Assembly (NCBI GenBank): GCA_964581795.1
Contig: CAZOPW010000001.1
Coordinates: 8,359-72,358 of the forward strand
Length of the DNA: 64,000 nucleotides
Direction: 5' to 3'
Source of the DNA: an uncultured Thermoplasmatales archaeon
GTDB lineage: Archaea; Thermoplasmatota; E2; DHVEG-1
In this document: in pieces, positions 11,249 through 35,151 of the stretch
How positions within the stretch are numbered: the first letter of the stretch is position 1
How the letters are laid out: the number at the start of each line of letters is the position of its first letter
Translations under genes and position numbers: made by a program
The notes under the pieces: generated by a model
Database searches by the model: none
Seen by the model: only the letters and a program-made list of their open reading frames with translations
Told to the model about the DNA's origin: nothing

Positions 11249-11260
11249 GGAGATTAGATT

Positions 11261-12892: not shown

Positions 12893-12921
12893 ATAAAGAA
12901 ATATTACAAATATGCGATGGG

Positions 12922-14598: not shown

Positions 14599-14617
14599 TA
14601 CTTTTGGTTGAGCTAAA

Positions 14618-16424: not shown

Positions 16425-17081
16425 CTATAAATCAATAATTGTTTCTGTATAAGTTGAAGGGGTTGTGAAATCAAAAATTGCTGATATTCCTTGTTCAGGA
16501 ACGATTTTTCCCGAAACTGAGGATCTTGGTGCTATCCCTTCAAAACAAGCAGTTGTATTAACCAAAATACCAATCAGATCATTTCGATTTATGGAAGGAG
16601 TATCAACAGTGCAACTATTATCATTATCTCGAATTACTAAAACACCAAACTCCGTATTGCTTAAATTGCTCGTATTCAATGTTTGAAACAATCCATTTGT
16701 CACAGTTGTAGAAAAACTCTCATTATCAAATAAAAGAATTGGCATTTTTTGAGAATCAGATATTTGAAGACGTGCTTCACTTAAATCAATTGCTTCAGAT
16801 CCTGCAGTTGTTTTAACAAAAAAACAAAGCTGGGCGATCGATTCATTTGAAACATAACCACTCACATGAGTTAATCTCAGACCAGATGAAATATCTTTTA
16901 TTGTTTCCTGGCTTGTCTGCAATGCTTGTTGTTGCATAGAGTCCATTGTTTGAAATACAACAGATGCAGCAACTCCCGCGGAAATAATCATAGCAATAAA
17001 AATAATTAATGATCCAATTCCAATTGAAGCATGATCTTCAGTAGAGAACACACCCCCAGAGTATACTATTACCTTTCTCAC
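16425..17081 (-). CDS. flaB: Archaellin (FlaB family), 218 aa, divergent paralog
   Basis: Class III signal peptide / archaellin N-terminus HASIGIGSLIIFIAMIISAGVAASVVF. Confidence 0.85.
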   Translation of the reverse strand: MRKVIVYSGGVFSTEDHASIGIGSLIIFIAMIISAGVAASVVFQTMDSMQQQALQTSQETIKDISSGLRLTHVSGYVSNESIAQLCFFVKTTAGSEAIDLSEARLQISDSQKMPILLFDNESFSTTVTNGLFQTLNTSNLSNTEFGVLVIRDNDNSCTVDTPSINRNDLIGILVNTTACFEGIAPRSSVSGKIVPEQGISAIFDFTTPSTYTETIIDL

Positions 17082-17273
17082 CTCCTAGCAATGATGTGAG
17101 TGGTTCAATTAACTTATTTTAAGAACCCATCCAATGAGAAGGTAATACAGTAAGCAGGTTATAAATCTATGGTTAAAACAAAAAATAGAACAATAAAAAA
17201 AAATGAAAAAAATCAAAAGGAGGGATGTTTTTTCCAATCTCTTAAAAAGAGAGTGGAAGAAATGACATCTCTC

Positions 17274-18018
17274 TATTATTGTAGTTTATAGATTTGATCA
17301 ACGTATGTCATTGGTGTAGTAAACGAAATCACACCAGGTGACCCAATCTCAGGAATCACACGACCAAACACATCTGTTCGTGGTGGAAGTTGTGCATCAA
17401 ACAAATATGAAGTATTTGTACAAATATACAAAATCGCTTTATCCCCACGATTCAACACGGGATTACTCGCAGTAATCGAACTATCTTCATCCTGCAACAC
17501 ACCAATCGCAAACGTTTCAGCACCAGTCGTATTCCAATGATCTTCACCAATATCAAACATATCACCAGTCACATCACCAACAAAGGAAATATTGCCATCA
17601 CCAGTATCTGTCGCATTAGTATAGTTATAACGTACCAATGATTTTGTAGCACCGTTACTAATCAAGATATAAGTATTATTCAGATCGATATCATCCGAAC
17701 CTGGTCGAACCTTCACCACAACAGCAAGCCGAGACAAATTCTCAAGCTCAGTACTATTGGATTCATTTCGAACCCATCCAGAAACCTCAAAAACAGAAAT
17801 ACCACTACTCACCTCTTTCCGAGTTTTCTGGCCAGTACTCAACGCCTGAATCTGCACGGTATTGCTTGTAGAAACCAAAACCGATGCAGCAATACCTGCA
17901 ACCAAAACCATTGCAATAAACACAATCATTGCACCAATACCAATAGCAGCTTCATGATCTCGAATAAAATTCTTAACAAACATTCTCATTTCTATTCACC
18001 TCCTTATTGCAACTCCAT
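17274..18018. repeat. 745-bp perfect direct repeat, copy 1 (covers flaB-237 gene plus junction to the upstream archaellin gene)
   Basis: Nucleotide-identical to 19933..20677 by direct comparison of both ends and of the encoded proteins. Confidence 0.85.
17276..17989 (-). CDS. flaB: Archaellin (FlaB family), 237 aa, copy 1 of an identical pair
   Basis: AAIGIGAMIVFIAMVLVAGIAASVLV N-terminus. Protein 100% identical to the 19935..20648 ORF. Confidence 0.9.
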   Translation of the reverse strand: MRMFVKNFIRDHEAAIGIGAMIVFIAMVLVAGIAASVLVSTSNTVQIQALSTGQKTRKEVSSGISVFEVSGWVRNESNSTELENLSRLAVVVKVRPGSDDIDLNNTYILISNGATKSLVRYNYTNATDTGDGNISFVGDVTGDMFDIGEDHWNTTGAETFAIGVLQDEDSSITASNPVLNRGDKAILYICTNTSYLFDAQLPPRTDVFGRVIPEIGSPGVISFTTPMTYVDQIYKLQ

Positions 18019-18699
18019 TACATCATCAATATAAGAAGCGGGGGTTGTAAAACCAACAATTCCTGGTGAACCTTCCTCACAGACGACAATACCAGATACA
18101 TCAGTTCTTGGAAGTAATCCACCAAATACTTCGTCTGTATTTATTCCTAAAATCACGTGATCTCCAAAATTAATAATTGGATTGTCTCTTGTGCATGAAT
18201 CATCAGCATCATTTAAAACAATTACACTGAATGAATTTGCACTACCATATGTGCCACTGCCAAATACATCTCCGTTTACATTCGAAGAGTTAGTGTATGT
18301 ATCATCTGATCTCTCGTATGCTAATATATATTTCTCTGATGAATCTGATATTTCAATTATTGTTTCATGTAAATCAATATCTGGAGATCCTGCTTTTGAA
18401 GTTATCTCTATAGCCATTTTATCAATTGAACCAGAAGTATTATGACCTTCAATAGCTTCAACTTTCAATCCACTTGCTACTTCTGCGATAGTCTCCTGAC
18501 CAGTTTTTAACGCCTGCATTTCCAACCGCGTACTTGTTTGGATAAGTACAGATGCGGCAATACCTGCCACAAGAACCATGGCAATAAAAATAATCATTGC
18601 ACCTATCCCAATTGCTGCGGTATCTATCTTTAAATTCTTTCCTAATTTTCTACATCCCATCATCGGAACATCCCTCCTAAAAGTTACGTCTTGTAACAA
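18004..18699 (-). CDS. flaB: Archaellin (FlaB family), 231 aa
   Basis: AAIGIGAMIIFIAMVLVAGIAASVLI N-terminus; close paralog of 20663..21319. Confidence 0.9.
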   Translation of the reverse strand: MLQDVTFRRDVPMMGCRKLGKNLKIDTAAIGIGAMIIFIAMVLVAGIAASVLIQTSTRLEMQALKTGQETIAEVASGLKVEAIEGHNTSGSIDKMAIEITSKAGSPDIDLHETIIEISDSSEKYILAYERSDDTYTNSSNVNGDVFGSGTYGSANSFSVIVLNDADDSCTRDNPIINFGDHVILGINTDEVFGGLLPRTDVSGIVVCEEGSPGIVGFTTPASYIDDVMELQ

Positions 18700-18775
18700 T
18701 TAGGTTGTTTCTATCAACAATAAAACAAACGGTCTTATTATACCTTTTTTTTAGATAGCAATACAAGTGTTAAGG

Positions 18776-18799
18776 CAAATGCATATGCATATGAATATG
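18776..18799. promoter_or_regulatory. Tandem hexamer array (CAAATG CATATG CATATG AATATG) abutting TATA box of the 18699 archaellin promoter
   Basis: Same 6-bp periodic CANNTG-type repeat family. TATA-like GGTATAATAAG immediately downstream (gene strand). AGGAGGG SD before the ATG. Confidence 0.5.
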
Positions 18800-18858
18800 T
18801 TAAAAATCAAGAAATGAATTTTGTCTTGTTATAAAAAGGGTAAATATAGAGTCAATTG

Positions 18859-19843
18859 TGTAGTACGAATATTATTTCGTTTTTTCTTTTTCATATTTTC
18901 AACTCCATAAAATATCCTAAAAGACAACTTGGATCTAATTTTCTCATCAATGCCTCTGCAGGGTTCTCTCCGATCTCTAACCAGAGAGATCCATGTAACC
19001 GATGGTTATACCATTGAAGGAATTCTTCAATGGTGTCAAAACGCCATCGGTGCTTATCATATTCAAACCAGAATCGTTCCACTTTCCCATTGGTTTGAGG
19101 ATTATTCCTGCGAGAGGGAACAAAGTTGATATCATTTTGTTCCAGGAATTCCTGAAATTGTGATTTGCTCTTCGGATGATTTGAGTAAAACTGGGTACCT
19201 CGATCCGTGTTCACATCCTTGATGAATGCATGAAACAGATGACTGTGATCAATCACCTTTTGAAAAGTATCAATACTATGCCTTGCAGTTGCTTCAGGAT
19301 ACTCTGCTCCATGAAAGATGTATCGTGATGCATCATCCATCCAGACAATGGCATGTGGATGATCCACTGAGGTACGATGCCAGTCACCATGGATCAATGA
19401 AAAACTATGATCACGTTCATACCGGCGACGTTTCCGTTTCTTCTGTTTATTCGGATTTGGAATCGTTCTTTTCTTCTTCAGGAAATACTTATGGATCTTA
19501 TGATGTGGAATATGATGCCCTCTTCGTTTCAATTCATGAAAAAGAAGACGAGCTCCGAACCGTGTTTCCTACCAACTTGATCAATGATCTCCTTTTCCGT
19601 TGGAGTAAGTGGTTTTCCTCTTGGTCGTCTCCTCGGGTTCAAACAGGGAGGTTTTCCTGTTTTGCTTATATTCCTTTACTAATTGCTGAATCCTCCGGAT
19701 GCTTACTTCATAATGTCGAGCTAATCGTTCTGTGGTCCAATCTTTATCTTCCACTGCATGTTTGCAGATGTTCCTTATTTTCTTGTCTGTAAGCTTTGTC
19801 ACATCAGCATGTAATCTAAAGCGAAATAATTTTCATACTCTAC
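18859..19843 (-). mobile_element. IS481-like insertion sequence (~985 bp) inserted between the duplicated archaellin units
   Basis: rve/DDE-type transposase ORFs. Imperfect terminal inverted repeats: TGTAGTACGAATATTATTTCG at 18859..18879 versus the reverse complement of GCGAAATAATTTTCATACTCTACA at 19821..19843. Confidence 0.6.
18891..19802 (-). pseudogene. IS481/IS3-like DDE (rve) transposase with N-terminal HTH, interrupted by two in-frame stops
   Basis: HTH segment (TTERLARHYEVSIRRIQQLVKEY). rve motifs TDRGTQF and NPQTNGKVERF. The two ORF pieces are in the same frame, separated by TGA (19581..19583) and TAG (19569..19571). Confidence 0.6.
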
Positions 19844-19932
19844 AAAATATAGAATCAATAAAAAAAGATTTAAAGAAATAAAAAAGTGAAGGGTTCCAAA
19901 AGGATTGGTTTCGGAGTGCCCTTTTTTCAATT

Positions 19933-20677
19933 TATTATTGTAGTTTATAGATTTGATCAACGTATGTCATTGGTGTAGTAAACGAAATCACACCAGGTGA
20001 CCCAATCTCAGGAATCACACGACCAAACACATCTGTTCGTGGTGGAAGTTGTGCATCAAACAAATATGAAGTATTTGTACAAATATACAAAATCGCTTTA
20101 TCCCCACGATTCAACACGGGATTACTCGCAGTAATCGAACTATCTTCATCCTGCAACACACCAATCGCAAACGTTTCAGCACCAGTCGTATTCCAATGAT
20201 CTTCACCAATATCAAACATATCACCAGTCACATCACCAACAAAGGAAATATTGCCATCACCAGTATCTGTCGCATTAGTATAGTTATAACGTACCAATGA
20301 TTTTGTAGCACCGTTACTAATCAAGATATAAGTATTATTCAGATCGATATCATCCGAACCTGGTCGAACCTTCACCACAACAGCAAGCCGAGACAAATTC
20401 TCAAGCTCAGTACTATTGGATTCATTTCGAACCCATCCAGAAACCTCAAAAACAGAAATACCACTACTCACCTCTTTCCGAGTTTTCTGGCCAGTACTCA
20501 ACGCCTGAATCTGCACGGTATTGCTTGTAGAAACCAAAACCGATGCAGCAATACCTGCAACCAAAACCATTGCAATAAACACAATCATTGCACCAATACC
20601 AATAGCAGCTTCATGATCTCGAATAAAATTCTTAACAAACATTCTCATTTCTATTCACCTCCTTATTGCAACTCCAT
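19933..20677. repeat. 745-bp perfect direct repeat, copy 2
   Basis: Identical to 17274..18018; offset 2659 bp. Confidence 0.85.
19935..20648 (-). CDS. flaB: Archaellin (FlaB family), 237 aa, copy 2 of the identical pair
   Basis: Protein identical to the 17276..17989 ORF. Confidence 0.9.
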   Translation of the reverse strand: MRMFVKNFIRDHEAAIGIGAMIVFIAMVLVAGIAASVLVSTSNTVQIQALSTGQKTRKEVSSGISVFEVSGWVRNESNSTELENLSRLAVVVKVRPGSDDIDLNNTYILISNGATKSLVRYNYTNATDTGDGNISFVGDVTGDMFDIGEDHWNTTGAETFAIGVLQDEDSSITASNPVLNRGDKAILYICTNTSYLFDAQLPPRTDVFGRVIPEIGSPGVISFTTPMTYVDQIYKLQ

Positions 20678-21319
20678 CCAAGCATCAATGTATGATGCAG
20701 GAGTAGTAAAACCGACAATTCCTGCTGCACCTTCTTCACATATAACTAATCCAGATACATCAGTTCTTGGTAATAAACCACTGTTTACTGTAAAGACTGA
20801 ACTTGTATCAATGCCTAAAATAACGTGGTCTCCATCATTTATTACAGGTGTTGTACTTGTGCATGATTCATCAGCATCTTGCAAAACTGTAATTCCAAAC
20901 GCAGTTGAGGATCCCCAAGCTCCATTAGTAGATAGGTCTCCATCAATCGATGTTGAGTTTTTATAATCAGATCCATAACCGAGTACATATTTGTTTGTTG
21001 AATCGGATATTTCAATTATTGCCTGTTCTAAATCTATATCTGGAGCGCCTGCTTTTGGTCTAATTTCAATTGCCATTTTGGTAATTTTACCTGAAGCATT
21101 GTATCCTTCAACACCTTCAACAGTAATACCTGAGGATACTTCAGCGATTGTTTCTTGACCCGTTTTTAATGCTTGCATCTCTAAACGTGTACTTGTTTGC
21201 ACCAGCACCGATGCAGCAATTCCAGCAACAAGAACCATGGCGATAAAAATTATCATGGCTCCGATACCAATTGCTGCCATATTTTTTCTATTTGTAAGGT
21301 ATTTAGTCTTTCGTCCCAT
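20663..21319 (-). CDS. flaB: Archaellin (FlaB family), 218 aa, first gene of the array
   Basis: AAIGIGAMIIFIAMVLVAGIAASVLV N-terminus. Strong AGGAGGGGTAAT SD 12 nt upstream. TATA and hexamer array further upstream. Confidence 0.9.
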   Translation of the reverse strand: MGRKTKYLTNRKNMAAIGIGAMIIFIAMVLVAGIAASVLVQTSTRLEMQALKTGQETIAEVSSGITVEGVEGYNASGKITKMAIEIRPKAGAPDIDLEQAIIEISDSTNKYVLGYGSDYKNSTSIDGDLSTNGAWGSSTAFGITVLQDADESCTSTTPVINDGDHVILGIDTSSVFTVNSGLLPRTDVSGLVICEEGAAGIVGFTTPASYIDAWMELQ

Positions 21320-21408
21320 CCTTCTATTACCCCTCCTGACAGTTACACAATTGCAACCTTTCAGAGTGCTACCCCAATATTCCTCTCTGTTTTTATATAC
21401 TTTATTTG

Positions 21409-21438
21409 CATGTGAATATGCAGGTGAATGTGTAGGTG
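21409..21438. promoter_or_regulatory. Tandem hexamer array (CATGTG AATATG CAGGTG AATGTG TAGGTG) immediately upstream of TATA box of the archaellin array promoter
   Basis: Five consecutive 6-bp NANNTG units. TATA (TATATAAA on the gene strand, ~21393..21402) directly adjacent. Confidence 0.55.
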
Positions 21439-21583: not shown

Positions 21584-22108
21584 TTATTTGAATATGTCCT
21601 TTTCCATTTTAGAAATCTGTTGTTCTAAATGCATAAGCTCTAAATCAACACCCATCTCTTTTAAAACATTTATAGATTCATCATCTAATTTTTGTGATAA
21701 CTCTTTTAAAAAAAAATGTCCTGCTTCATCGCCCAGGGAATTATTCAAATGAGTGATAATATCTTTTACCGCTGGACCCATTTTATTTATTTTCAATTCA
21801 TTTATATTACCCATGATGGTTATTGGTTCAGAATCTTCTAAATAAGTTGTGTCTTTCACTGTTATATTATCTAAAAATGAGTGTTGTTTTTTTAAATTAT
21901 TTAGTGTTGATCCCAATAAATAGACTGCATGGCTCTGTGTGGTCTTCCTTCCAGATATTAATAAAATCGTGTTTAAAACATCCTTAATAACTTTTATATT
22001 TTCCACCATATTTAGTCCCATTTCTTGATAATTATTTCTAATTGAATATCTGTAGAAATAAATATTGTTTTTCTTAAGAATAGAAATTGATTTTTTATAT
22101 TTTATCAT
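21584..22108 (-). CDS. Hypothetical cytoplasmic protein (174 aa) immediately upstream of the archaellin array
   Basis: Intact ORF; no recognisable motif. Confidence 0.35.
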   Translation of the reverse strand: MIKYKKSISILKKNNIYFYRYSIRNNYQEMGLNMVENIKVIKDVLNTILLISGRKTTQSHAVYLLGSTLNNLKKQHSFLDNITVKDTTYLEDSEPITIMGNINELKINKMGPAVKDIITHLNNSLGDEAGHFFLKELSQKLDDESINVLKEMGVDLELMHLEQQISKMEKDIFK

Positions 22109-23546: not shown

Positions 23547-23576
23547 TATATGCATGTGCATTTGTTGATGGATATG
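23547..23576. promoter_or_regulatory. Tandem hexamer array (TATATG CATGTG CATTTG TTGATG GATATG) followed by TATA-like TTATATATC
   Basis: Same repeat family; upstream of the 23763 ORF. Confidence 0.45.
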
Positions 23577-23762
23577 CAAGTTATATATCTGGTAATTATT
23601 TTTTGTGGGTTTATGTGTAATTATTGTGTAATACATTACACATCACTAATTTTTCAATTCTATAATTAGAGATAATAGTTTTATTTAGGCTTATGTTCCT
23701 TTCATAATAGTGGTATTTTTTCATTATGATCATTTTTTCAACAAGAATTAAAAAGAAGTAAT

Positions 23763-24251
23763 GTGGCAAACAATATCACGATGGAAGGAAAGAAGGATAT
23801 AACTAAGGCAATTACTAAGATACGAAGTCATCCTCATTTCCTTGTTTTTATGAGTATTTTAGTAATTAGTGTCTTAAGTAATAGTATTATGATATCATAT
23901 ATGGGAGTTTCCTCATTTATTGATTCATTATCTAATCCAGAAGAATATAAAATCATCAGTCACAAATATATATTAAACAAACAGCATGAAGCCGATAGAT
24001 TTTGTATTATCGCTCAAAAACAATCACAGACACTATCATCAATTAATACTTCAGACCAACTCTATATTCATTATAGCAATGATTGTTCTTCTTACTATTT
24101 ATTATCAAATCAATCAGAAAAACCAGATCAATCGCTCCAGATTGCGGGCAAAGTGGTTTCCATTATTGAATCTGATCCGCTATCTACTTTATCTTTTATA
24201 TGGTGGCAAAAAAGTATTCAGTTTATTGAAATTTTGAAAAGTAAAAAATAA
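23763..24251 (+). CDS. Small membrane protein (single TM), hypothetical
   Basis: GTG start in ORF track; alternative ATG at 23781. Hydrophobic helix FLVFMSILVISVLSNSIMI. Confidence 0.35.
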   Translation: MANNITMEGKKDITKAITKIRSHPHFLVFMSILVISVLSNSIMISYMGVSSFIDSLSNPEEYKIISHKYILNKQHEADRFCIIAQKQSQTLSSINTSDQLYIHYSNDCSSYYLLSNQSEKPDQSLQIAGKVVSIIESDPLSTLSFIWWQKSIQFIEILKSKK

Positions 24252-24283: not shown

Positions 24284-24994
24284 ATGAACCAAGCAACGAT
24301 GTTTATGTATCTCATTGCAATTATTTTTTTGCCCGTTGTTATTCTATTTTCATTATATTTGGTTTATATGTTAATTTTTAATTCGTTGACTTTTTCTTCC
24401 AAAACTTCAATGATGTTAACCATATTTATCATGTTGACCTCTTTTTCTCCATCCTTGCTTTTTCAACACGCTGATGGCATATTCTTGTTTTCAATTTCTT
24501 CATGGAATTTTTATATTCACCCAATTGGATTTCTATTGCCGGTTCTAATTTCTTGTTTATTAATTATGAAAACGAAAGTAAGTTGGCCGTTTTTATTGAG
24601 TAGCCTTATCCCTGTATCACTTACTGCTTATCTCATGACTACTCCAATTATTGAAAAAGGAATTGTATCCCCATTTCCCCTTTGGTTATTTCCACCCTTG
24701 GTTGCTGCTATAATATCGGTTTTAAATAAAGAAGTGCTCCAAAATAAACTATTTTTATATGCTTTTTCTCTTGGTGTTTTTGGCGTGATTATTGGAGCAG
24801 ATCTTGCACATTTACCGACCTTAATACAGCTCTCAACCTCATCATCGATGCATGCAACAATAGGAGGAGCGGGCAGTCTTGATCTCATTTTCTTAAGCGG
24901 TATTTTTTCCGTATTATTTTCAAAATTATTTTTACTTGGAAGAAAACTACTTCATTTTGAACAAATGAATAAAACAGAATATCTGCATATGTAA
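24284..24994 (+). CDS. Polytopic integral membrane protein (6-7 TM), function unknown
   Basis: Highly hydrophobic throughout. Contains GADL and GGAGSLD motifs, but these do not convincingly match prepilin-peptidase GxGD motifs. Confidence 0.4.
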   Translation: MNQATMFMYLIAIIFLPVVILFSLYLVYMLIFNSLTFSSKTSMMLTIFIMLTSFSPSLLFQHADGIFLFSISSWNFYIHPIGFLLPVLISCLLIMKTKVSWPFLLSSLIPVSLTAYLMTTPIIEKGIVSPFPLWLFPPLVAAIISVLNKEVLQNKLFLYAFSLGVFGVIIGADLAHLPTLIQLSTSSSMHATIGGAGSLDLIFLSGIFSVLFSKLFLLGRKLLHFEQMNKTEYLHM

Positions 24995-25034
24995 TTATTA
25001 ATGCGAGCAATAATGCAAATAATACTGTATATTG

Positions 25035-25076
25035 CAGGTGCATATGCAGGTGTATATGTTGATGCTTATTCAAGTG
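25035..25076. promoter_or_regulatory. Tandem hexamer array (CAGGTG CATATG CAGGTG TATATG TTGATG CTTATT CAAGTG) abutting TATA (AGTATAAATAA) of the wHTH regulator gene
   Basis: Best-conserved copy of the repeat family; ~45 nt upstream of the 25134 start. Confidence 0.55.
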
Positions 25077-25133
25077 GGGATTTAGTATAAATAATAGTAG
25101 TTTCATACATTACTAAAGCGGTGAGGGTTTGGG

Positions 25134-25478
25134 ATGCACGAGCCGGATAATGAAAATATTTCAGCAGAGGTAAAGCGCCCTTTGGTAGTTCGGGCGTTAC
25201 GCAGAAGTAACGTACGAAAAAAGATAGCAGAATATCTTTTTGATATTAGTCCAAGTTATAGTTATACTTCTGAAATAGCCTATCATGTAAAAACGACTCC
25301 AACTAATGTGATAGGAGCTATTAGAGGGATGAAATCACGATATCGAGAGGATGAGTCATTAATAGGACTTGATCTTATCGAAGAAAGGAAGGGCGGATCA
25401 AACATTAAACTCTATGGTCTTACTCCTTTTGGAAAAGAGATTCTAGAGTCAATGTTAAAGGAGAAAAATAATCGTTAA
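25134..25478 (+). CDS. Small winged-helix transcription regulator (114 aa)
   Basis: wHTH-like core (IAEYLFDISPSYSYTSEIAYHVKTTPTNVIGAIRGMKSRY). Positioned between the archaellin and che clusters, with the hexamer array in its own promoter. Confidence 0.55.
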   Translation: MHEPDNENISAEVKRPLVVRALRRSNVRKKIAEYLFDISPSYSYTSEIAYHVKTTPTNVIGAIRGMKSRYREDESLIGLDLIEERKGGSNIKLYGLTPFGKEILESMLKEKNNR

Positions 25479-25635
25479 AGATGGCTATTTTATACTGCCA
25501 TCGCTTTATTTTTAAAATAGAAATCCTCACTGCATTTTAAAATCAATGATTAAAAAAAGAAATATAAAAAAAGATGGTATGATACTTCTTGAGTAAGTCG
25601 TGTTGCATTATCCAAAAGAAGAGAAATATTTTTAT

Positions 25636-26481
25636 CTAGGGTTTTTGAAATACTCGTTCCCTAGAATTGTACGGTTGAAATTTCATTCTTGCCTCGCCGA
25701 CAAGCGTTTCGGTTTTCCCCATCACAAAGAAGCCTCCAGAGTTAAGTGCATTATAAAAATCCATATACAATATTTCTTGTAGAGACCGACTGAAATAAAT
25801 GACAACGTTTCTACAAAAGATAATATCGAAATTTTGTTTTTTCGGACCAGAAATTAGATCATGATATTGAAAAGAAACCAAATCTTTGACAACTGGTTTT
25901 ATTTGATAGTTATCTTGATTTATATCGAAAAAATTTTCTGGATTCTTTAAAAAAGAAAGTTGTTTTGACACATCAGTCTGACTAATTCCTTTTCGTGAAA
26001 AATAAGCTCCAGTTTTTGCTCGCTGCAGACAAGCCTGATCAATATCAGTAGCAACAATACTCACTTTTGACTTTGCTTTTCGTTCACCTAACAATTCAAT
26101 AAAAAGCATCGCAATACTGTATGCTTCCTTCCCATCTGATGAACCTGCACTCCATACTCGAACACGGTTTTTATGTTCAGAAATAGAGGGAATTATATCC
26201 TGCTGGATAAACTGGTAAACGCTTTGATCTCGAAAAAATTCAGTGACATTTATTGTTAAATCATTAAGTAACCGTTCTTGTTCCTTTGTATTCGTTTTTA
26301 ATAATTTCCAATACTCATGATAACTTTCTAAATTATAAGCTCTTAATCTTGCATTAAACCTTCTCCCTAAATAGGTATTCTTATATTGATCAGTATTAAA
26401 TCCAAGTAGGCTTTTTACGCCTTTTTTGAGTTCCTCAAAATCGGGAGGATACGTTCTTGTTTGTACCACGTTCTTATTCAC
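25636..26481 (-). CDS. cheR: Chemotaxis protein methyltransferase CheR
   Basis: SAM-MTase motif VWSAGSSDGKEAYSIAMLF; last gene of the che operon. Confidence 0.85.
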   Translation of the reverse strand: MNKNVVQTRTYPPDFEELKKGVKSLLGFNTDQYKNTYLGRRFNARLRAYNLESYHEYWKLLKTNTKEQERLLNDLTINVTEFFRDQSVYQFIQQDIIPSISEHKNRVRVWSAGSSDGKEAYSIAMLFIELLGERKAKSKVSIVATDIDQACLQRAKTGAYFSRKGISQTDVSKQLSFLKNPENFFDINQDNYQIKPVVKDLVSFQYHDLISGPKKQNFDIIFCRNVVIYFSRSLQEILYMDFYNALNSGGFFVMGKTETLVGEARMKFQPYNSRERVFQKP

Positions 26482-26499
26482 CTTTTCATTCTTTTAAAG

Positions 26500-27015
26500 T
26501 TAAATGACTTTAATATTCGGTCCTTCTCCACCTTTTTTCACCATGCGAATGTGTAATTCTTCATTATTTGGATAAAATGTTATTGTTCGACCTCGATCTC
26601 CGCCTACATCCTTTCCAACAATTCGGATATGATGTTGTTTAAGAATCTGTTGAACCGCTTCAGCATTTCTTTTGCCAATCTGCAAGGAGTCATCTTTGAA
26701 AGTAAATAGACTCGCTCCACCAGCAATTTTTGCTTTACAATTGTGTGTATTACAACCTTTCTTTTTCATTTCATCAAGTAATGCTGGAATAGCTGTATCG
26801 GCATATTTGCCGATCCTGTCTTTTTTTGTTCCCATAGTGGGAAGCATTATGTGCGAAAGACCTGCAATTTTTTGTTTGGAATCATAAATGACAATACCTA
26901 TACAACTACCTAACCCTACTGTTGATAAGGGAGAACCATTATCAGATACCGCATAATCACCAATCCCAATGATAACATTTTCCTGCATACTTACTATCCT
27001 TCCAAGATGGTACAA
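26500..27015 (-). CDS. cheD: Chemoreceptor glutamine deamidase CheD
   Basis: GLGSCIGIVIYD motif typical of CheD. Confidence 0.85.
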   Translation of the reverse strand: MYHLGRIVSMQENVIIGIGDYAVSDNGSPLSTVGLGSCIGIVIYDSKQKIAGLSHIMLPTMGTKKDRIGKYADTAIPALLDEMKKKGCNTHNCKAKIAGGASLFTFKDDSLQIGKRNAEAVQQILKQHHIRIVGKDVGGDRGRTITFYPNNEELHIRMVKKGGEGPNIKVI

Positions 27016-27027
27016 TTTTCTTAATGT

Positions 27028-27705
27028 CTATTCAGATAATGAATTGACATATGCATCTACTTCCACATCATTTGTTTTTCCAAATGATGCAATCAATCGA
27101 TCATACAAAATATCCAATGATTGTGGTGACGGAAGTAAAATGAAATATGAAGTAAACTGATTTTTTTTCCCTCGAAACTGTGTATCAAAAATTAATGCGT
27201 GAGATGTTTCTTTTCCAATGATATTAGTGATTTGATCAATAAAGACATCAGGGACTTCTTCAGAATAATGAGGTGGTGACAGCATAATAGAAGTATCAAG
27301 GAAAGTACTCAGGGCATTTGTATAAGCTGAAACAACGACATTTCCCACTTCTGTTATCGCAGATTCGCTCATTTCATTTAATTCAGTTGAAGTACCTATC
27401 GGTTGAAACATAAGCAAATCTGAAAGAATTAACGCACTTTTATAAGGAAATAAAAACAAAATACTTCCAAGAAATTTATCTGTTAATTCCAAGTAAACAC
27501 CGACAAGTTTATTATCATCACCTGAGATTTTTCTAATGCTTTGTTTTAAATCTGGAATTTTTTGTACAAAAATTTGAGGGACATTAATTTCAACTTCTTG
27601 ATTAATCATTTGGGAGACCGCAGTTGCAGCATGAGAGCAGCCAATATTACCTGTTTCTTGTAATGCATCAAGTTGTGTTTCATTTAGTAAGTGGAGTTGT
27701 TTCAT
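27028..27705 (-). CDS. cheC: CheC-family CheY-P phosphatase (paralog 3)
   Basis: NIGCSHAATAVSQMI motif; ~210-225 aa; tandem with two further CheC genes. Confidence 0.8.
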   Translation of the reverse strand: MKQLHLLNETQLDALQETGNIGCSHAATAVSQMINQEVEINVPQIFVQKIPDLKQSIRKISGDDNKLVGVYLELTDKFLGSILFLFPYKSALILSDLLMFQPIGTSTELNEMSESAITEVGNVVVSAYTNALSTFLDTSIMLSPPHYSEEVPDVFIDQITNIIGKETSHALIFDTQFRGKKNQFTSYFILLPSPQSLDILYDRLIASFGKTNDVEVDAYVNSLSE

Positions 27706-27752
27706 TTATCTTACCATCCTATCCTAATTTAACTTATTACCATATATTATGT

Positions 27753-28367
27753 TCAATCCATGCCGAGCTTATGTAGCATAAGATCAATCGTTTTCGGTTC
27801 TGGAATAAGAAACATATTCACATCAAAAGTATTCTTACCTTCTTCAGATACCGCAGTTTCAAATAGCAAAACTGTATCAGCAACCGATCCAACTTTAATT
27901 AATGCATAATCAAGAATTGCTGCAGGCATATCAAAAGCAATTACAGGAGGACCTGGTACCATTGATACATTAATTAGTTCAGTTATACTATCAAAAAATG
28001 AACTCATCATCACATTACTGACCTCCATTAATGCTGACTCTTCCATCTCTGAAAAACTATCTCGCATTCCTTCAGGTTGATTAAGTAACAGATTAGAAAG
28101 ATAAAACGCACTCTTTTTAGAAAGAAGTACCATAACATACAACGGTGTTTCCTCTGCCATCTGTAAAAAAACACCAATAACGGGGTCTGTCTGAGGAACA
28201 GTTTCAACGCTTTTTTCAAGTGGAACAACATCAATACGTGGAATTCCCACTTGTATCGGCTTGCTTACCATTTTGGATAGAGCTGTCGCTGCGTGAGAAG
28301 CACCTATATTAGCTACTTCTTGCAAAGCATCCCGTTGCATTTCATTTAGAGTCAATGTTTCAATCAT
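27753..28367 (-). CDS. cheC: CheC-family phosphatase (paralog 2)
   Basis: ANIGASHAATALSKMV motif. Confidence 0.8.
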   Translation of the reverse strand: MIETLTLNEMQRDALQEVANIGASHAATALSKMVSKPIQVGIPRIDVVPLEKSVETVPQTDPVIGVFLQMAEETPLYVMVLLSKKSAFYLSNLLLNQPEGMRDSFSEMEESALMEVSNVMMSSFFDSITELINVSMVPGPPVIAFDMPAAILDYALIKVGSVADTVLLFETAVSEEGKNTFDVNMFLIPEPKTIDLMLHKLGMD

Positions 28368-28386
28368 CTTTTTCCCTTCAAATAAA

Positions 28387-29001
28387 TTATTTTAAACCCA
28401 TACGTTTAAGTAGTGTATTTACTGAATCTGGCTCAGGTAACAAAAACATGTGAATTTCGAAATTATGATCTTTTTCCTCTTTTAAATCAACATTAAACAA
28501 AAACACATCATTTGATACCTCTCCGATTTGAATAAGGACATAATCAAGAACAGCTTCAGGAATATCATACGCTAAATGAGGCGGACCAGGTACAACACTC
28601 ATGCCTAATAATGCAGATATACTATCAAAAAATGAACAGATCATCACATTTGCTACTTCAGATAATGCAGACATATCCATTTCAGAGAGCACCCGTTCAC
28701 CAGAATGTATCTGTTCTCCTAAAAGTAAATCAGCAAGTGCAAATGCGCTCTTTCTTGGAATTAACATCATCACATAGGATGGTATTTCATCAGATATTTT
28801 TAAAAAAATACCTACAACGATTTGTTCATTTTGAATATACGTTCCTGCTTCAGCTAACGGAATAACCTCTACATGAGGGATTCCCATTTTTACTTCACGA
28901 TTAATCATTTGAGACAATGCAGTAGACGCATGACCTGCGCCAATGTTTGCCAGCTCTTGCAATCCATCCTTTTGTGTTGTATCTAATGTAATTTTTTTCA
29001 T
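28387..29001 (-). CDS. cheC: CheC-family phosphatase (paralog 1)
   Basis: ANIGAGHASTALSQMI motif. Confidence 0.8.
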   Translation of the reverse strand: MKKITLDTTQKDGLQELANIGAGHASTALSQMINREVKMGIPHVEVIPLAEAGTYIQNEQIVVGIFLKISDEIPSYVMMLIPRKSAFALADLLLGEQIHSGERVLSEMDMSALSEVANVMICSFFDSISALLGMSVVPGPPHLAYDIPEAVLDYVLIQIGEVSNDVFLFNVDLKEEKDHNFEIHMFLLPEPDSVNTLLKRMGLK

Positions 29002-29026
29002 ACCTTGTTTCCTTCTAATACAATTT

Positions 29027-31096
29027 TTATTTTACAAGTGTATTCACATCAAGGACTAATATGACCCTTCCATCACCAGTTATAGTTACTCCCGCGATAC
29101 CTTTCGTTCTTTTCATACTGCCGCCAACATTCTTAATAGTTATTTCTTGTTCACCAATTAATTGATCAACGAGTAATCCAAATTTTTTATCTTCTCGTTG
29201 GATTATCACACCATAAACACTTTTTGTCAAATCTTTGCCATCTTTTTCATTCTTAACAAGATCTTTTAATCCTAAAACAGGTAACACTTCATTTCGAATC
29301 ACCGTAGTTTTTTTGCCATCTATGTAATTGATATCTTCTGGTTGAAGTTTGACCGTTTCAATAATATTACTAATAGGAATTGCATATGTCTCCTGATCGA
29401 CACCAATAAATAACGCTTTGAAAATTGCCATCGTTAACGGTAATTTTAAAGAAAATGTACTTCCTTTATCCGTAGAAGACTGAACATCCACGACACCATT
29501 GAGCTTTTCAATAGTGGATTTGACTACATCCATTCCTACCCCTCGACCAGAAATATTAGTAATTTTTTCTGCACTACTTAATCCAGGTAAGAAAATAAGT
29601 TGTAATGCCTGCTGATCGGTCATTGATTGGACCTCTTGTTGCATTTTTAAACCTTTTTTCACAGCAGTTTCTTTAATTTTATCTGGGTTAATGCCTTTTC
29701 CATCATCTGTTACCTTAATGAGAACGTGATTTCGTTTACGTTCTGCAATAAGTTGAACAGTTCCAGCTGATGGTTTACCCTTTTTTTCTCTTTCTTCAGG
29801 TGTTTCAATTCCATGGTCGACTGCATTTCTAAGTAAATGAACTAGAGGATCTCCAATTTCATCTAAAACGGTACGATCAAGTTCTATTCCTTCACCTTCC
29901 ATCTGGAAATCAATCTGTTTTTCATTTTGCTTTGACAGGTCACGAACCATTCTAGGAAATCTATTGAATATATGTTTCATCGGTATCATTCGAATGTTCA
30001 TAATTTTGTCCTGTAGTTGATTGGTTAATCGATCAAAAGTTGAAATGGTTTCTGAAAGATCCTCTAAATTATGATCTGCAGCAATTTGAGTTAATCGACC
30101 TTTACTAATAACAAGCTCTCCTATGAGATTCATGAATTCATCAAGTTGATCCATTCCGACACGAATGCTTTGTGACTGCCGTGCTAATTCTTTTTTTGAT
30201 TTGATCGGTTTTTTGTCACTAGCCTTTTTTGTTTTTCGTTGGTTGTCTGGTTTCTCACTTGGACTATGGTCAGTCACTTCACCTTTTTTTTGAATTTGTT
30301 GATATTCTTTAGGAATTGATATTTTATCATTTTCAATTGAGAGAGGAATAACTTGTTTTTCTTCTAATTCTGAAACGGAATCAACTATTTCATGAACTGA
30401 TTCTTCATTTGCACTCGTGGTATAAAAGAGATCAAATGATTCATCAAAATCTCCCTCCTCTATCATTTTTCTTTTAGGATTAGTGTATACTATTTCACCA
30501 TTATCGCTTAATTTTTTTAAAAGAAGATATGCCCTTATTGATTTCATCCTGCATTGTTCATTAACTGATATATGCAATGCGTACACGGATTGTTCTTGTT
30601 CCAATTTTTGTAGCAAAGTTTCATTTATATCTTTTGGGAAATCTAATGAAACTGTTGTTGAATCTGATGGTTTGTTCTTTGGTTTTTTTTGTCCCGATGA
30701 AGAATTTAAGTAGTTTTCTAATTGCTCAATTAACCCATTAATATTAAAATCAGTTACATCATTTACCGCAATATCCTCCACCATTTCCTCTATTCCATCA
30801 AAACAATTAAAAATTAAATCAACAACATTGCTATCAACTGTAATTTCATGTTGACGAATAAGATCAAGAGTATCTTCAGTTTTGTGAGATAAATGTTGAA
30901 TGGAATCGTAATTTAACGTAGCAGCCATTCCTTTGATTGTATGTGCCGCACGAAAAATTTTGTTTAATGCTTCTTCATCCTCTGGATTTTGTTCAAAATC
31001 TAATAATGATTGATTTAATGTTGTAAGATGTTCCCTTGCTTCCTCAATGAACATCTCTTTGTATTCGCTGTTCTCATCATTCATTATGCAATTCAC
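29027..31096 (-). CDS. cheA: Chemotaxis histidine kinase CheA
   Basis: Hpt motif AAHTIKGMAATL. HATPase region (GRGVGMDVV). C-terminal CheW-like domain. Confidence 0.9.
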   Translation of the reverse strand: MNCIMNDENSEYKEMFIEEAREHLTTLNQSLLDFEQNPEDEEALNKIFRAAHTIKGMAATLNYDSIQHLSHKTEDTLDLIRQHEITVDSNVVDLIFNCFDGIEEMVEDIAVNDVTDFNINGLIEQLENYLNSSSGQKKPKNKPSDSTTVSLDFPKDINETLLQKLEQEQSVYALHISVNEQCRMKSIRAYLLLKKLSDNGEIVYTNPKRKMIEEGDFDESFDLFYTTSANEESVHEIVDSVSELEEKQVIPLSIENDKISIPKEYQQIQKKGEVTDHSPSEKPDNQRKTKKASDKKPIKSKKELARQSQSIRVGMDQLDEFMNLIGELVISKGRLTQIAADHNLEDLSETISTFDRLTNQLQDKIMNIRMIPMKHIFNRFPRMVRDLSKQNEKQIDFQMEGEGIELDRTVLDEIGDPLVHLLRNAVDHGIETPEEREKKGKPSAGTVQLIAERKRNHVLIKVTDDGKGINPDKIKETAVKKGLKMQQEVQSMTDQQALQLIFLPGLSSAEKITNISGRGVGMDVVKSTIEKLNGVVDVQSSTDKGSTFSLKLPLTMAIFKALFIGVDQETYAIPISNIIETVKLQPEDINYIDGKKTTVIRNEVLPVLGLKDLVKNEKDGKDLTKSVYGVIIQREDKKFGLLVDQLIGEQEITIKNVGGSMKRTKGIAGVTITGDGRVILVLDVNTLVK

Positions 31097-31097
31097 C

Positions 31098-32576
31098 TTA
31101 TTTTTTCTGCTTAAGCCATAATGTGCTTTGGGGAGCTATTTGATGAAGTGGAAGCACTTTATCCACTACCCCTAATTCAATCGCAGCTTTAGGCATACCA
31201 AAGATTATTGAAGTTTTTTCATCCTGAGCTATAGTTCTTCCCCCCTTTGCCTTAATTGTTCCCATTGCTTGTGCACCATCTCTACCCATGCCAGTTAATA
31301 ACACTGCAACAAGATGTTGTTGAAAGACTTCTGCAGCTGTAGAAAACGTTACATCCACAGCAGGTCTCACACCATGAATTTTAGGTTTTTTATTCAATGA
31401 AACATATCGTTTTAGTTTTCCATTATCCATTTCTTCCTCAACAGTCATATGATAATCGCCAGGCGCAATAAGAGCAACACCATTTTTGATTTCATCACCC
31501 TCGCTAGCTTCTTTTACATTAATCTCAGATAAGGTGTTTAATCGTTCTGCAAGAGATTTTGTAAATACCGGGGGCATGTGTTGAACAATCAGAATACCAG
31601 CAGTTATATCTCTAGGAATTTGAGGGATAAGTTTAGTAAGAGTTTGAGGCCCACCAGTAGAGGAACCAATGATTAATACTTTTTTTACAGTAGTCAATGG
31701 TTGAAAATGAGTTTTTCTTACTTCTGCAAATTTTGTCTTCATTTGATGAGCAGTTCTAACTTTTTCAAGTAATAACTCACTCATTGTCTGAATACTCGTA
31801 TGTGGTGCCGGTTTTGGAATAAAATCTATTGCCCCAGCATCTAATGCGTCTTTAATAGCAGCCATATTATGCTCAGCTTCGCCACTTATTACTATGACTG
31901 GGAGTGTTCGCTCTTGCAATAATTTTTGTGTAGCTATTACACCATCAACATTTGGCATATTAATATCCATTAACACAACATCAGGATGAATTTCTTGTAA
32001 TTTTTGTAATGCTTCACCACCATCAAGAGCAGTTCCAATAATATTCATATCATGTTGTGAACTAATGATTTCTGAAATCTTTTTCAAAAAAAAGGGCGAA
32101 TCGTCGACCAAAAAAACGTTAATTAATGATTTTGTTGCACTTGCCATCTTCGTTCTTGAATATGTTTCAAAGTTAACATTTGCATGAGCAGATGTTTTTA
32201 CTTTTTCAATTAATTCAGAGCCTATTTCCTTCATATTTAACGATATTGAACCAGATGGTTTACAAATAAAATCAATTGCTCCAGCGTGTAACGATTCAAT
32301 TGTAATCCTTGCTCCTTGAGATGTCAATGCACTTACCATAACTATTGGTTTTGGATTATGTTTCATGATGTGCCTAACAGCATCAATACCATTCATTTCT
32401 GGCATTTCAACATCCATCGTAATGACATCTGGATTGAATTTTTCTGTTTTTTTGATAGCATCAACGCCGTTTTTTGCTGTGCCAATCACTGATATTTGAG
32501 GATCTTGTTTAAGAATATCACTAATCACTTTTCGCATAAATGCAGAATCATCGACAACAAGAACGTTTAGGCTCAC
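31098..32576 (-). CDS. cheB: Chemotaxis methylesterase CheB with two tandem N-terminal receiver domains (REC-REC-CheB_methylest, 492 aa)
   Basis: REC1 VLVVDDSAFMRK...ITMDVEMP...FICKP. REC2 VFLVDDSPFFLKK...VLMDINMP...FIPKP. Methylesterase domain with GSSTGGPQ and HMPPVFT. Confidence 0.85.
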   Translation of the reverse strand: MSLNVLVVDDSAFMRKVISDILKQDPQISVIGTAKNGVDAIKKTEKFNPDVITMDVEMPEMNGIDAVRHIMKHNPKPIVMVSALTSQGARITIESLHAGAIDFICKPSGSISLNMKEIGSELIEKVKTSAHANVNFETYSRTKMASATKSLINVFLVDDSPFFLKKISEIISSQHDMNIIGTALDGGEALQKLQEIHPDVVLMDINMPNVDGVIATQKLLQERTLPVIVISGEAEHNMAAIKDALDAGAIDFIPKPAPHTSIQTMSELLLEKVRTAHQMKTKFAEVRKTHFQPLTTVKKVLIIGSSTGGPQTLTKLIPQIPRDITAGILIVQHMPPVFTKSLAERLNTLSEINVKEASEGDEIKNGVALIAPGDYHMTVEEEMDNGKLKRYVSLNKKPKIHGVRPAVDVTFSTAAEVFQQHLVAVLLTGMGRDGAQAMGTIKAKGGRTIAQDEKTSIIFGMPKAAIELGVVDKVLPLHQIAPQSTLWLKQKK

Positions 32577-32603
32577 AACGTATCCCTCTAAGAACAGAGG
32601 AAG

Positions 32604-33014
32604 TTATCCCATTATTTTTCCAACTTCTTCCAAAACCTGGGGAGCCTGAAATGGTTTTACAATATATCCCTTGGCACCTGCTTCAATTGCTTCCTTAACT
32701 TTTGTCTCTTGTCCTACAGCAGTCACCATGATTATGTTTGCATTCCCATCTTCTGCAACTATATTTTTTACTGCTTCTATTCCTTCCATATTCGGCATTA
32801 CTATATCCATAGTGACAAGGTCTGGTTTATGTTTCTTGTATGCCTCAATTGCTTCCAGTCCATCGGATGCTTCAGCAACAATTTCAAATCCCTTAGGTTT
32901 AAGGATATTTGCTAGCATCATCCGCATGAATTTTGTATCATCTACTAACATCACTTTTTTTCCCATACGACCCTCCTCACCGCAAAAGGTGGTGTCGTTT
33001 ATCAATTTTTCCAT
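32604..33014 (-). CDS. cheY: Chemotaxis response regulator CheY
   Basis: VMLVDDTKFMR...VTMDIVMP...YIVKP. Real start possibly the internal Met (MGKKVML, ~32966). Confidence 0.9.
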   Translation of the reverse strand: MEKLINDTTFCGEEGRMGKKVMLVDDTKFMRMMLANILKPKGFEIVAEASDGLEAIEAYKKHKPDLVTMDIVMPNMEGIEAVKNIVAEDGNANIIMVTAVGQETKVKEAIEAGAKGYIVKPFQAPQVLEEVGKIMG

Positions 33015-33054
33015 ATTTTTTATTTTATTCTTTTGAATTTAGTTTTTTTATATT

Positions 33055-34005
33055 TTACTTAAGATTCTTTTTCATTTGTTCAACAATGTGTTTTGTTCCC
33101 TTTTCTGTTAGTTCATATTCCTGATCACCAGAAACACGAAGTACCTCTTTTGATAAGAGATCATCAACAATACTCTGTAATTCCTCCTCAGAAATCCCTA
33201 GCATCTCTGTTGCCATAGATGCATCAATATCACTAGTATACATCATTTGAACAAGCATGAACTGTTGTTCATTTAATTCAATCGTTTCTGATTCCTTTGC
33301 TTTACTTTCAGAGATGAGTTGAACGTATGAACCCATAAAGGAAATTAATGGACGTTTGCCAGTAATCAAAGTTGAAATAATCGTTCCTTCTTTTTGATAT
33401 TTAAGTGTTAAAGAGGAATCTTGTTTATCTTGTAAATTAATTTCAAAATCATCCAAATTTAGTAAATCGATTGTTTCTTTTTGTTTCTTGCCTAACCATT
33501 CTGCAGCAAGTATAACATTATTTTTTTTAATGAACACATTTCCTTCAACAGGTTTTTTATCTAAAAGGATTTTTCCACCTTTACTAAATGGACTTACGAA
33601 CTCTATTGTTTTTCCATTTGTTAAAAGAATGCATAAAAATTTTTTAATTTTCTTTGCATTCTCATGCGAGGTTGATAATAAACAGGCTTTTTCCTCATTA
33701 TCATCTGAGATATAATGGACTGGTATAATTGTCGTTGAACCTAGAGCTTTTCGCCAGAGTTCAACTTTCCTATCCACATCAGTAATTTTATCATATGGCA
33801 AAATCTTAATATTTTCTTCATCTGGTTTATTATCTTTCTCTGGAGCCAATAGTATTTTTTTCGTTGTTAATGTTAAAAAACCTGGAGTAAGCCTTTTCTC
33901 ATTATTTTTATCCTTTAAATTTGAGAGTTTGTAAATGAATTTTAAATATGAATTTTGGATCAATGCTTTTTCTTCAGCCATCCTACCGTAACCTTTCTTT
34001 TCCAA
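33055..34005 (-). CDS. Putative CheF-like archaeal chemotaxis adaptor (first gene of che operon)
   Basis: Position (cheF-cheY-cheB-cheA-cheC-cheD-cheR is the canonical archaeal order). ~316 aa. No bacterial-type che domain. C-terminal wHTH-like segment. Confidence 0.45.
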   Translation of the reverse strand: MEKKGYGRMAEEKALIQNSYLKFIYKLSNLKDKNNEKRLTPGFLTLTTKKILLAPEKDNKPDEENIKILPYDKITDVDRKVELWRKALGSTTIIPVHYISDDNEEKACLLSTSHENAKKIKKFLCILLTNGKTIEFVSPFSKGGKILLDKKPVEGNVFIKKNNVILAAEWLGKKQKETIDLLNLDDFEINLQDKQDSSLTLKYQKEGTIISTLITGKRPLISFMGSYVQLISESKAKESETIELNEQQFMLVQMMYTSDIDASMATEMLGISEEELQSIVDDLLSKEVLRVSGDQEYELTEKGTKHIVEQMKKNLK

Positions 34006-34252
34006 AGAATTTTCGATTGGAGTAAATCGCGGTGAAAGTAAATGGATTATTCATTTTTTAATTGATTTATCTCTTTATTGGAAATTCTTTTATCAATCCC
34101 ATCTCCACTTATCATTCATCCTCGCATATTCCATCCGTAACTGAAAATAGAAAACTCCTATTTAAAGTTACATCATAAATTATGTTTATTAAAAGAAAGA
34201 TTGTAGTAACTAATCATTTAATGAGATAAAAAGAAAAGGATAATTATCCTGA

Positions 34253-34744: not shown

Positions 34745-35013
34745 ATGTTCAATCCCCTGAAATTAATGAAAACACTATACCCTCTCACTTTTAAAGATTT
34801 TTCTTTTATAATAAAATTTACTGATTCCTACTAAATTTTAATTAGAATATTCTGATGAGGCAGAGTAATTCTTTATAATCCTTTACATAATAATTTATAT
34901 TAATTTCAAAATTATCATAATGATATATTAAAAATATTGAACAGATTTCATTATTTTTCGACAATTTTAAATAGCTTAATTTTAATTTGTCAAAAAGACC
35001 TAATGCTACTTTG

Positions 35014-35046
35014 GATGTGGATTTGGGATGAATCAATTGCAGGAGA
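35014..35046. promoter_or_regulatory. Degenerate hexamer array (GATGTG GATTTG GGATGA ... TGCAGG) followed by TATA-like AATTATATTTAAA upstream of the MCP gene
   Basis: Weaker member of the same repeat family. Confidence 0.35.
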
Positions 35047-35151
35047 TAAAAATTGTCAATTATATTTAAATTTGACTTAAAGTAATTGTTTTTATTTTCT
35101 CATTTTAGGATTATTCATCTCAATGAAGCTGGCTTTAGATAAATAACAAAG

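Follow-up and report, generated by a model that had tools for sequence, protein, structure and literature searches.

A small winged helix-turn-helix protein of the EarA family, encoded between the archaellin genes and the chemotaxis genes of an uncultured Thermoplasmatales archaeon, probably binds tandem 12-bp units in the promoters of archaellin genes, of a secreted glycoprotein gene, of an operon for a 162-aa protein and a DUF1614 protein, and of its own gene. It probably activates these promoters, in which case the feedback on its own promoter would be positive. We analysed a 64-kb stretch of DNA, hereafter the window, which is AT-rich (33.6% G+C), and compared it with 80 loci encoding relatives of the regulator with 61-96% identity, all from Thermoplasmatota MAGs. 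Related loci are designated by L numbers where they need to be told apart.

The earA locus and its product

On the forward strand, the window holds an arl operon of the order arlC-D/E-F-G-H-I-I-J (7825-16372). A single arlI is the usual content of arl operons; two successive genes for T2SSE (ArlI-like) ATPases, of 543 and 558 aa, are present in this one (11261-14598, forward strand). Five archaellin genes follow on the reverse strand (16425-21319), with an IS481-family transposase gene inserted among them. Four small genes without an informative Pfam match and then a DUF1614 gene separate them from earA, the 114-aa ORF encoding the winged helix-turn-helix protein of the EarA family (25134-25478, forward strand). 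Beyond earA, a cheR-cheD-cheC(x3)-cheA-cheB-cheY-cheF cluster occupies the reverse strand (25636-34005), and an MCP gene and cheW come next. Within the 64 kb, earA is flanked by archaellin genes on one side and the che cluster on the other, a gene order that agrees with the placement given in an earlier note on this DNA, and the same synteny links earA to arl and che genes in L004, L006 and L007. The gene next to earA, convergent to it (25636-26481), codes for a CheR methyltransferase. The position of earA between arl and che clusters has already been described in a review, according to which a predicted methyltransferase gene always adjoins earA (PMC10117864); the CheR found here may or may not be of that family.

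By its sequence, the product of the 114-aa ORF is an EarA-family winged helix-turn-helix regulator. It matches the Pfam EarA profile PF07381 with an E value of 8.1e-26 and 90.1 bits, for a cut-off of 22, and the match spans residues 18-105 on profile positions 1-88 of 90, i.e. the full length. We found 2165 homologues in a large protein database, the closest of which belong to uncultured Thermoplasmatota and Thermoplasmatales MAGs; several close homologues carry the NCBI name 'archaellum operon transcriptional activator EarA family protein'. The EarA affiliation suggested in the earlier note is thus supported both by the 90-bit match and by the names of the homologues. That note had also considered that a homology search might place the protein in an unrelated family such as PadR or ArsR. 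The outcome speaks against it, with a full-length PF07381 match instead and no match to HTH_5, HTH_20 or PadR in Pfam or NCBIfam at E values up to 0.1. The NCBIfam search gave no significant match for the 114-aa protein, including none to an EarA model, and a PDB sequence search detected no solved relative.

As for the fold, AlphaFold2 models were built on 44 homologues; one of the five was confident (pLDDT 86.3, pTM 0.79) and the other four were poor. The best model has the topology a1-a2-a3-a4-b-b-a5, with helices at residues 11-24, 26-38, 45-52 and 56-64, a beta hairpin at 82-96 and a last helix at 98-113, and as modelled it is a winged helix-turn-helix of the ArsR/MarR type. Its top Foldseek matches are MepR, CzrA, SmtB and CadC, and the DNA-spreading protein AspA was also retrieved. 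These ArsR/SmtB and MarR-type dimeric winged-helix proteins have 13-22% identity with the EarA protein, which is a fold-level likeness only.

Tandem 12-bp units upstream of earA

The earlier note had described the repeats upstream of earA as a hexamer array. Its reading of the ORF, of the repeats and of the TATA box agrees with the letters, and the hexamers are present as written (CAGGTG CATATG CAGGTG TATATG TTGATG at 25035-25064, CAAGTG at 25071-25076), but the spacing in related loci makes 12 bp the better unit. A pure hexamer model of CANNTG repeats was dropped because 12 bp is the most frequent spacing in the 80 loci and the distance to the TATA box varies in 12-bp steps; we therefore adopted a unit in which a CATATG-like hexamer alternates with a CAGGTG-like hexamer. 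After iterative matrix refinement, its consensus is NATATG(C/T)A(G/n)(G/A)T(G/A), written NATATG(C/T)ANRTR. In the related loci, the distance between adjacent units peaks at 12 bp (50 cases) and at 6 bp (19 cases), and the units sit 60-110 nt ahead of the ATG. Upstream of earA homologues, 7-mers such as TATGCAG, ATATGCA and TGCAGGT are enriched 20-38 fold in a strand-specific manner, with 32 copies of TGCAGGT for 3 of its reverse complement.

In the window, runs of at least six hexamers ending in TG and kept in register occur three times, whereas 200 dinucleotide-preserving shuffles gave a mean of 0.01 and a maximum of 1. One of these runs (2331-2366, reverse strand) lies within a coding region and lacks the motif. 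Allowing up to two mismatches, CAGGTG-N6-CAGGTG has 7 matches for 1.34 expected, a number reached in 0 of 100 shuffles. Clear arrays, all of them intergenic, are located at 18776-18799, 21403-21438, 23547-23582 and 25029-25076, and to these can be added a weaker array at 2868-2903 and a two-unit site at 7768-7791. The seven equally good arrays of the earlier note were not found.

The array of earA consists of four tandem 12-bp EarA-box-like units, ATATTGCAGGTG, CATATGCAGGTG, TATATGTTGATG and CTTATTCAAGTG, delineated by sequence and PWM on the forward strand (25029-25076). They score 11.8, 19.0, 11.1 and 10.4 bits in that order; CATATGCAGGTG is the best-scoring unit of the whole window, and from there the units weaken step by step toward the promoter. 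The TATA box TATAAATA (25086-25093) starts 48 nt before the ATG. The stretch between the array and the TATA box is filled by GGGATTTAG, and the BRE position corresponds to the 9 nt ahead of the box (25077-25085). Judging from its distance to the TATA box, the conserved leader element TTTCATACA (25101-25109) is the likely transcription start region, and a Shine-Dalgarno sequence, GGTGAGGG (25120-25127), precedes the ATG at 25134. After the ORF, RNA folding predicts a hairpin, GAUGGC...GCCAUC, of -9.2 kcal/mol (z of -2.74 relative to shuffles), followed by the T-rich run CTTTATTTTT (25480-25513, forward strand). The earA transcript likely ends there, in which case the gene would be monocistronic. 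When the eight closest orthologous promoters are aligned, the unit cores, the nearly invariant TATA box, the TTTCATAC element and the Shine-Dalgarno region are kept, while the DNA farther upstream diverges.

Read on the opposite strand, the unit core ATATG(C/T)A becomes T(A/G)CATAT, a sequence that includes TACATA, the EarA box of M. maripaludis. In Thermococcales, Stöckl et al. described the motif A(C/G)(C/G)TACA(T/C), repeated up to three times upstream of the arlB0 BRE (PMC10665913). It is fitted by the units ACCTACAC and ACCTGCAT read in archaellin orientation (cACCTACACatt and cACCTGCATatt in a fuller reading). From these resemblances we infer that the 12-bp units are EarA binding sites, and we regard them as predicted EarA boxes.

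Most of the 80 loci have two to four tandem units upstream of the earA homologue, and the position and register of the array are kept in L001-L007 and in most of the 80. On the coding strand, at least one unit is found upstream of 69 of the 80 earA homologues and at least two upstream of 48. By comparison, 19 of the 652 neighbouring ORFs within 5 kb have at least two units; 14 of these 19 are archaellin-family genes and one is the 162-aa/DUF1614 operon. If two or more units of 8 bits or higher, spaced at 12 bp, are counted as an array, the 1.09 Mb of DNA formed by the window and the related loci contains 69 arrays, for 0-1 in block shuffles. Measured in 68 loci, the distance between the last strong unit and the TATA box falls mostly into three classes: 19-22 nt (39 loci), 31-33 nt (16 loci) and 44-45 nt (7 loci). 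These classes are 12 nt apart, which places array and promoter in a common 12-bp register. The step closest to the promoter is taken up by a weak unit, ATTAT(C/T)CA, represented in the window by CTTATTCAAGTG; most loci have it 8-10 nt away from the TATA box. Of the 41 loci with an array, 27 have a co-directional ORF upstream, as does the window, and the array thus does not stem from a divergent promoter. All scored earA units are upstream of BRE/TATA. The presence of such a conserved, TATA-phased array in homologues with 61-96% identity suggests, on comparative grounds, that earA is autoregulated. The earlier note had proposed a positive autoregulation; the loop is strengthened by this comparison, but its sign stays conditional, as discussed below.

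Archaellin and other candidate target promoters

The first archaellin operon (20663-21319 and 19935-20648) has its promoter at 21392-21438 on the reverse strand, which reads, in gene orientation, CACCTACACATT CACCTGCATATT CACATGCAAATA, AAG and TATATAAA (21392-21399). Three TACATA-type units abut the TATA box, directly upstream of the BRE/TATA of the first archaellin gene, and the layout ...cacCTGCAAATAAA-n-TATATAAA is kept in L001, L004, L006, L007, L013, L059, L066 and L079. The BRE region of the archaellin promoters is A-rich. The second archaellin pair (18004-18699 and 17276-17989) has an array at 18764-18799 on the reverse strand, which on the forward strand reads CAAATG CATATG CATATG AATATG, with CAAGTG ahead, and which is located about 30 nt upstream of the TATA-like GGTATAATAA. 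No array was found in the own promoter of the last archaellin gene (16425-17081).

Several other features of this region were observed. The IS481-family transposase gene (18891-19792, reverse strand), split into at least two ORFs, sits between the two archaellin pairs, just past the 18776 array. The flanking archaellin genes, at 17276-17989 and 19935-20648, encode identical proteins and have 300 nt of identical DNA, which suggests that they were recently duplicated or homogenised by gene conversion. A conserved 5' leader element, tAGCACTCTgAAAGGTTG, is present between the TATA box and the Shine-Dalgarno sequence of the first archaellin genes (21330-21375, reverse strand). It is also found in the archaellin leaders of L001, L004, L013, L059, L066 and L079 and ahead of a homologue of the 507-aa glycoprotein (L085). 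Lastly, a 174-aa protein without a Pfam match (21584-22108, reverse strand) adjoins archaellin clusters in 12 loci, among them loci with array-less EarA paralogues (cluster 5).

The promoters of earA and of the archaellin genes are not built identically. The core nearest to the TATA box is at about 4 nt at the archaellin genes, where it overlaps the BRE position, versus about 12 nt at earA, and in the window and most loci the unit flanks face opposite ways at the two kinds of promoters. A rule of fixed orientation, one way for earA and the other for archaellin genes, fails in L005-L007, whose earA promoters show the archaellin-type reading, ACCTGCATAT or TACATAT. The CATATG core is palindromic and constant, so unit orientation may not matter functionally.

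Two sets of non-archaellin genes have similar promoters. The operon directly upstream of earA, composed of the 162-aa ORF (23763-24251) and the DUF1614 gene (24284-24994, forward strand), is preceded on the same strand by the array TATATGCATGTG CATTTGTTGATG GATATGCAAGTT, then TTATATAT (23547-23582). In L001, L004 and L007, an array occupies the equivalent place, some 1.6 kb ahead of earA. The products are a membrane-anchored protein and a polytopic membrane protein, respectively, and the unit that their genes form is syntenic in the same three loci; it may be linked to the archaellum. In the leader of the 162-aa ORF, 60-80 nt past the array, we also noted an inverted repeat, TGTGTAAT-N4-ATTACACA (23622-23645), which recurs at matching positions in these three loci and may represent a second operator or an RNA hairpin. 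The other gene, on the reverse strand (1261-2784), has an archaellin-type promoter (2857-2903) that reads TACCTGCACATGTATAAGGATATGCACCTACAAAAAAGG-TATAAAAG (GCACCTACAAAAAAGG-TATAAAAG) in gene orientation. Its product is a secreted protein of 507 aa that has no Pfam domain, is rich in N-X-S/T sequons and is hydrophobic in an N-terminal segment; it represents a conserved Thermoplasmatota family, and a glycoprotein 98% identical to it is encoded on a 395-kb ENA contig. The promoter is kept in L081, L083 and L085, whose proteins have 78%, 62% and 54% identity, respectively.

The arlC-J promoter (7759-7791, forward strand) has a different organization, with the TATA-like TTTTTATA (7759-7766) followed by GATATGTATTAG and TTTATGCAGGTG (7768-7791). 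The units thus follow the TATA box; they lie near the predicted start of transcription, before the ribosome-binding site. This layout, with one or two units, is kept in the lineage of the window (L087-L094), whereas in more distant arlC promoters the units are absent and a strong AAGTAAAAGTATAAATA element is present. As the units are restricted to this lineage and their position is not of the activator type, arlC-J is an uncertain candidate for an EarA-activated operon; units at the predicted arlC start suggest that EarA may also repress. Across Thermoplasmatota (7759-7824 in the window, L087-L166), arlC promoters combine AAGTAAAAGTATAAATA with an invariant initiation region, TAGGAGGGGTA-N5-AAAGTTAAAG-ATG, in which the Shine-Dalgarno sequence is unusually distant from the ATG, at about 20 nt. 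In the lineage of the window, the TATA region of arlC has been replaced and EarA-like units have been gained at the predicted transcription start.

The che and MCP promoters (34006-34252 and 34745-35151) contain no arrays, only isolated matches of 9-10 bits, and the che operon and MCP genes were accordingly rejected as regulon members. The 'master regulator of the motility regulon' envisaged in the earlier note is therefore reduced to a candidate regulator of the filament genes and a few additional ones, since the che and MCP genes lack arrays and the arlC-J layout is not that of an activator.

Sign of the proposed feedback, paralogues and known systems

By analogy with EarA of M. maripaludis, EarA would bind the 12-bp units cooperatively and, once bound, would activate transcription by assisting the recruitment of TFB and TBP. 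The promoters activated would be those whose arrays end at the BRE. With the same upstream array in front of its own gene, EarA would exert a positive feedback, which would result in a switch-like commitment to archaellation. The family, the modelled fold, the motif with its specificity and the conserved phasing at earA and archaellin promoters are supported directly by the sequences, whereas we infer the binding of the units by EarA and not by another factor, the activating effect of this binding and the positive sign of the feedback. Among the observations that fit this explanation poorly are the opposed unit flanks at the earA and archaellin promoters and the different distances between core and TATA box at these promoters.

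The main rival to positive feedback is a negative or dual autoregulation, which we consider unlikely. EarA would bind its own array and repress, or activate at low and repress at high concentration, yielding a homeostatic negative feedback. Occupancy would spread cooperatively from the strong distal units to the weak proximal ones and then to BRE/TATA. The drop in unit strength toward the TATA box (19.0, 11.1 and 10.4 bits) would be consistent with such a mechanism, as would the conservation of the weak ATTAT(C/T)CA unit at 8-10 nt from the box in most loci and the repressor-type position of the arlC units, downstream of their TATA box. Furthermore, the nearest structural relatives of the modelled protein are dimeric ArsR/MarR repressors and the spreading protein AspA. 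However, the location of all scored earA units upstream of BRE/TATA is the known layout of archaeal activators, including EarA at the fla promoter (PMC5512572), and in every case tested EarA has acted as an activator (PMC10665913; PMC13286277).

Many related MAGs have three or four EarA loci each; the 64-kb window has a single earA copy. Its product belongs to a clade linked to archaellin clusters, together with those of L001-L007 and L013. In another clade, earA and a lone archaellin-family gene accompanied by KaiC-like ATPases are arranged divergently, and the genes that follow earA putatively resemble pdxS and pdxT, from a reading of their sequences. Members of a third clade are located downstream of genes for an 852-aa T2SSE ATPase and a 676-aa polytopic membrane protein, and those of yet another are found beside Peptidase_C25 genes. 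One clade is devoid of self-arrays (L048, L054, L056, L057, L059, L066, L075 and L079), from which it follows that autoregulation is not universal; three of its members (L059, L066 and L079) are 2.4-3.5 kb upstream of box-bearing archaellin clusters. All paralogue clades have one and the same HTH and wing region, SYTSEIAY-VKTTPTNVIGAIRGM, and the paralogues should therefore share their DNA specificity. With several paralogues and identical recognition regions, self- and cross-regulation are inseparable in such genomes. The invariance of the HTH region also made covariation between recognition helix and box uninformative as a test of self-binding.

It is therefore conceivable that the arrays are bound by an EarA paralogue, or by an unrelated regulator, and that the earA gene of the window is a co-regulated target, in a cascade rather than a loop. 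The three or four paralogues of many related genomes, with their identical HTH/wing region, would be compatible with this, and so would L059, L066 and L079, whose paralogues have no self-array and whose archaellin promoters are nevertheless boxed. We nonetheless judge a cascade to be quite improbable: the motif matches the experimentally defined EarA box and is almost confined to earA and archaellin promoters, and the array-bearing earA is the archaellin-linked copy in the lineage of the window, with no second copy in 64 kb. Finally, in view of the AT-richness of the units in a window of 33.6% G+C and of the recent duplication of the archaellin pairs, the arrays might owe their presence to chance or to the base composition of AT-rich intergenic DNA, or might be left over from a promoter duplication and have no regulatory role, but this is barely credible given that shuffles yield essentially no arrays and that position, register and phasing are kept down to 61% protein identity while the flanking DNA diverges.

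Building on the preferred reading, in which EarA activates its own promoter, a broader scenario can be put forward quite tentatively, and we lean toward doubting it. Self-arrays would be an ancestral and conserved feature of Thermoplasmatota EarA genes and would underlie a bistable, positive-feedback motility switch. The paralogues, with a single DNA specificity, would be placed beside different type-IV-filament loci (an archaellin-like gene with KaiC-like ATPases, or a T2SSE ATPase with a polytopic membrane protein) and would form a cross-wired network that also drives the secreted glycoprotein gene and the DUF1614 operon.

Among known systems, EarA of M. maripaludis (MMP1718) is also a small winged helix-turn-helix protein of PF07381 and has short boxes with a TACATA core, repeated directly upstream of the BRE/TATA of the first archaellin gene; the fla promoter of that species has an A-rich BRE region like the archaellin promoters described here. 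In contrast, the M. maripaludis earA gene is located away from the arl and che genes, and the predicted sites reported here are 12-bp repeats with an added GGTG flank, also found before earA and at least two non-archaellin units. The M. maripaludis earA deletion has already served for complementation with other homologues (Ding et al. 2017, Microbiology 163:804). The EarA system of Pyrococcus furiosus and other Thermococcales has an earA gene beside the arl cluster, as here, and A(C/G)(C/G)TACA(T/C) in one to three copies upstream of the BRE, from which their distance is fixed; ACCTACAC and ACCTGCAT match this motif. That motif was reported only upstream of arlB0 (PMC10665913), whereas in the window internal archaellin promoters, earA and other genes are also boxed, and related genomes have several EarA paralogues. 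Ptr2 of Methanocaldococcus jannaschii likewise recruits basal factors from multiple sites upstream of BRE/TATA (summarised in PMC5512572), but it belongs to an unrelated family (Lrp/AsnC) and has other targets and another site sequence. ArnR/ArnR1 of Sulfolobus and CsmR of Haloferax volcanii are dedicated regulators of archaellin genes encoded near the arl cluster, and have no sequence relationship to EarA according to the authors (PMC13286277). Further differences from EarA are the membrane-bound state of ArnR/ArnR1 and the additional role of CsmR in the control of cell shape.

The EarA family, its placement between arl and che genes and the box upstream of archaellin promoters are already published. 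In the literature searched, we found no mention of EarA autoregulation or of boxes in earA promoters, including that of M. maripaludis, and nothing on EarA in Thermoplasmatota beyond one review containing both terms. Our analysis of these sequences suggests three useful and testable additions, namely the conserved self-array, which is modestly new, candidate extra regulon members and the expansion of paralogues. The gain is incremental, as it refines a known system without adding a new one, and a specialist would not be surprised. To our knowledge, Euryarchaeota have no other known activator dedicated to the archaellum than EarA, and studies of it have dealt with two cultured lineages. The locus described here extends the pair formed by EarA and its box to uncultured Thermoplasmatota of sediments and brines. 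As the box is conserved across three orders, it is usable for regulon prediction from sequence alone, and the secreted glycoprotein family and the 162-aa/DUF1614 operon are candidate new members of the EarA regulon.
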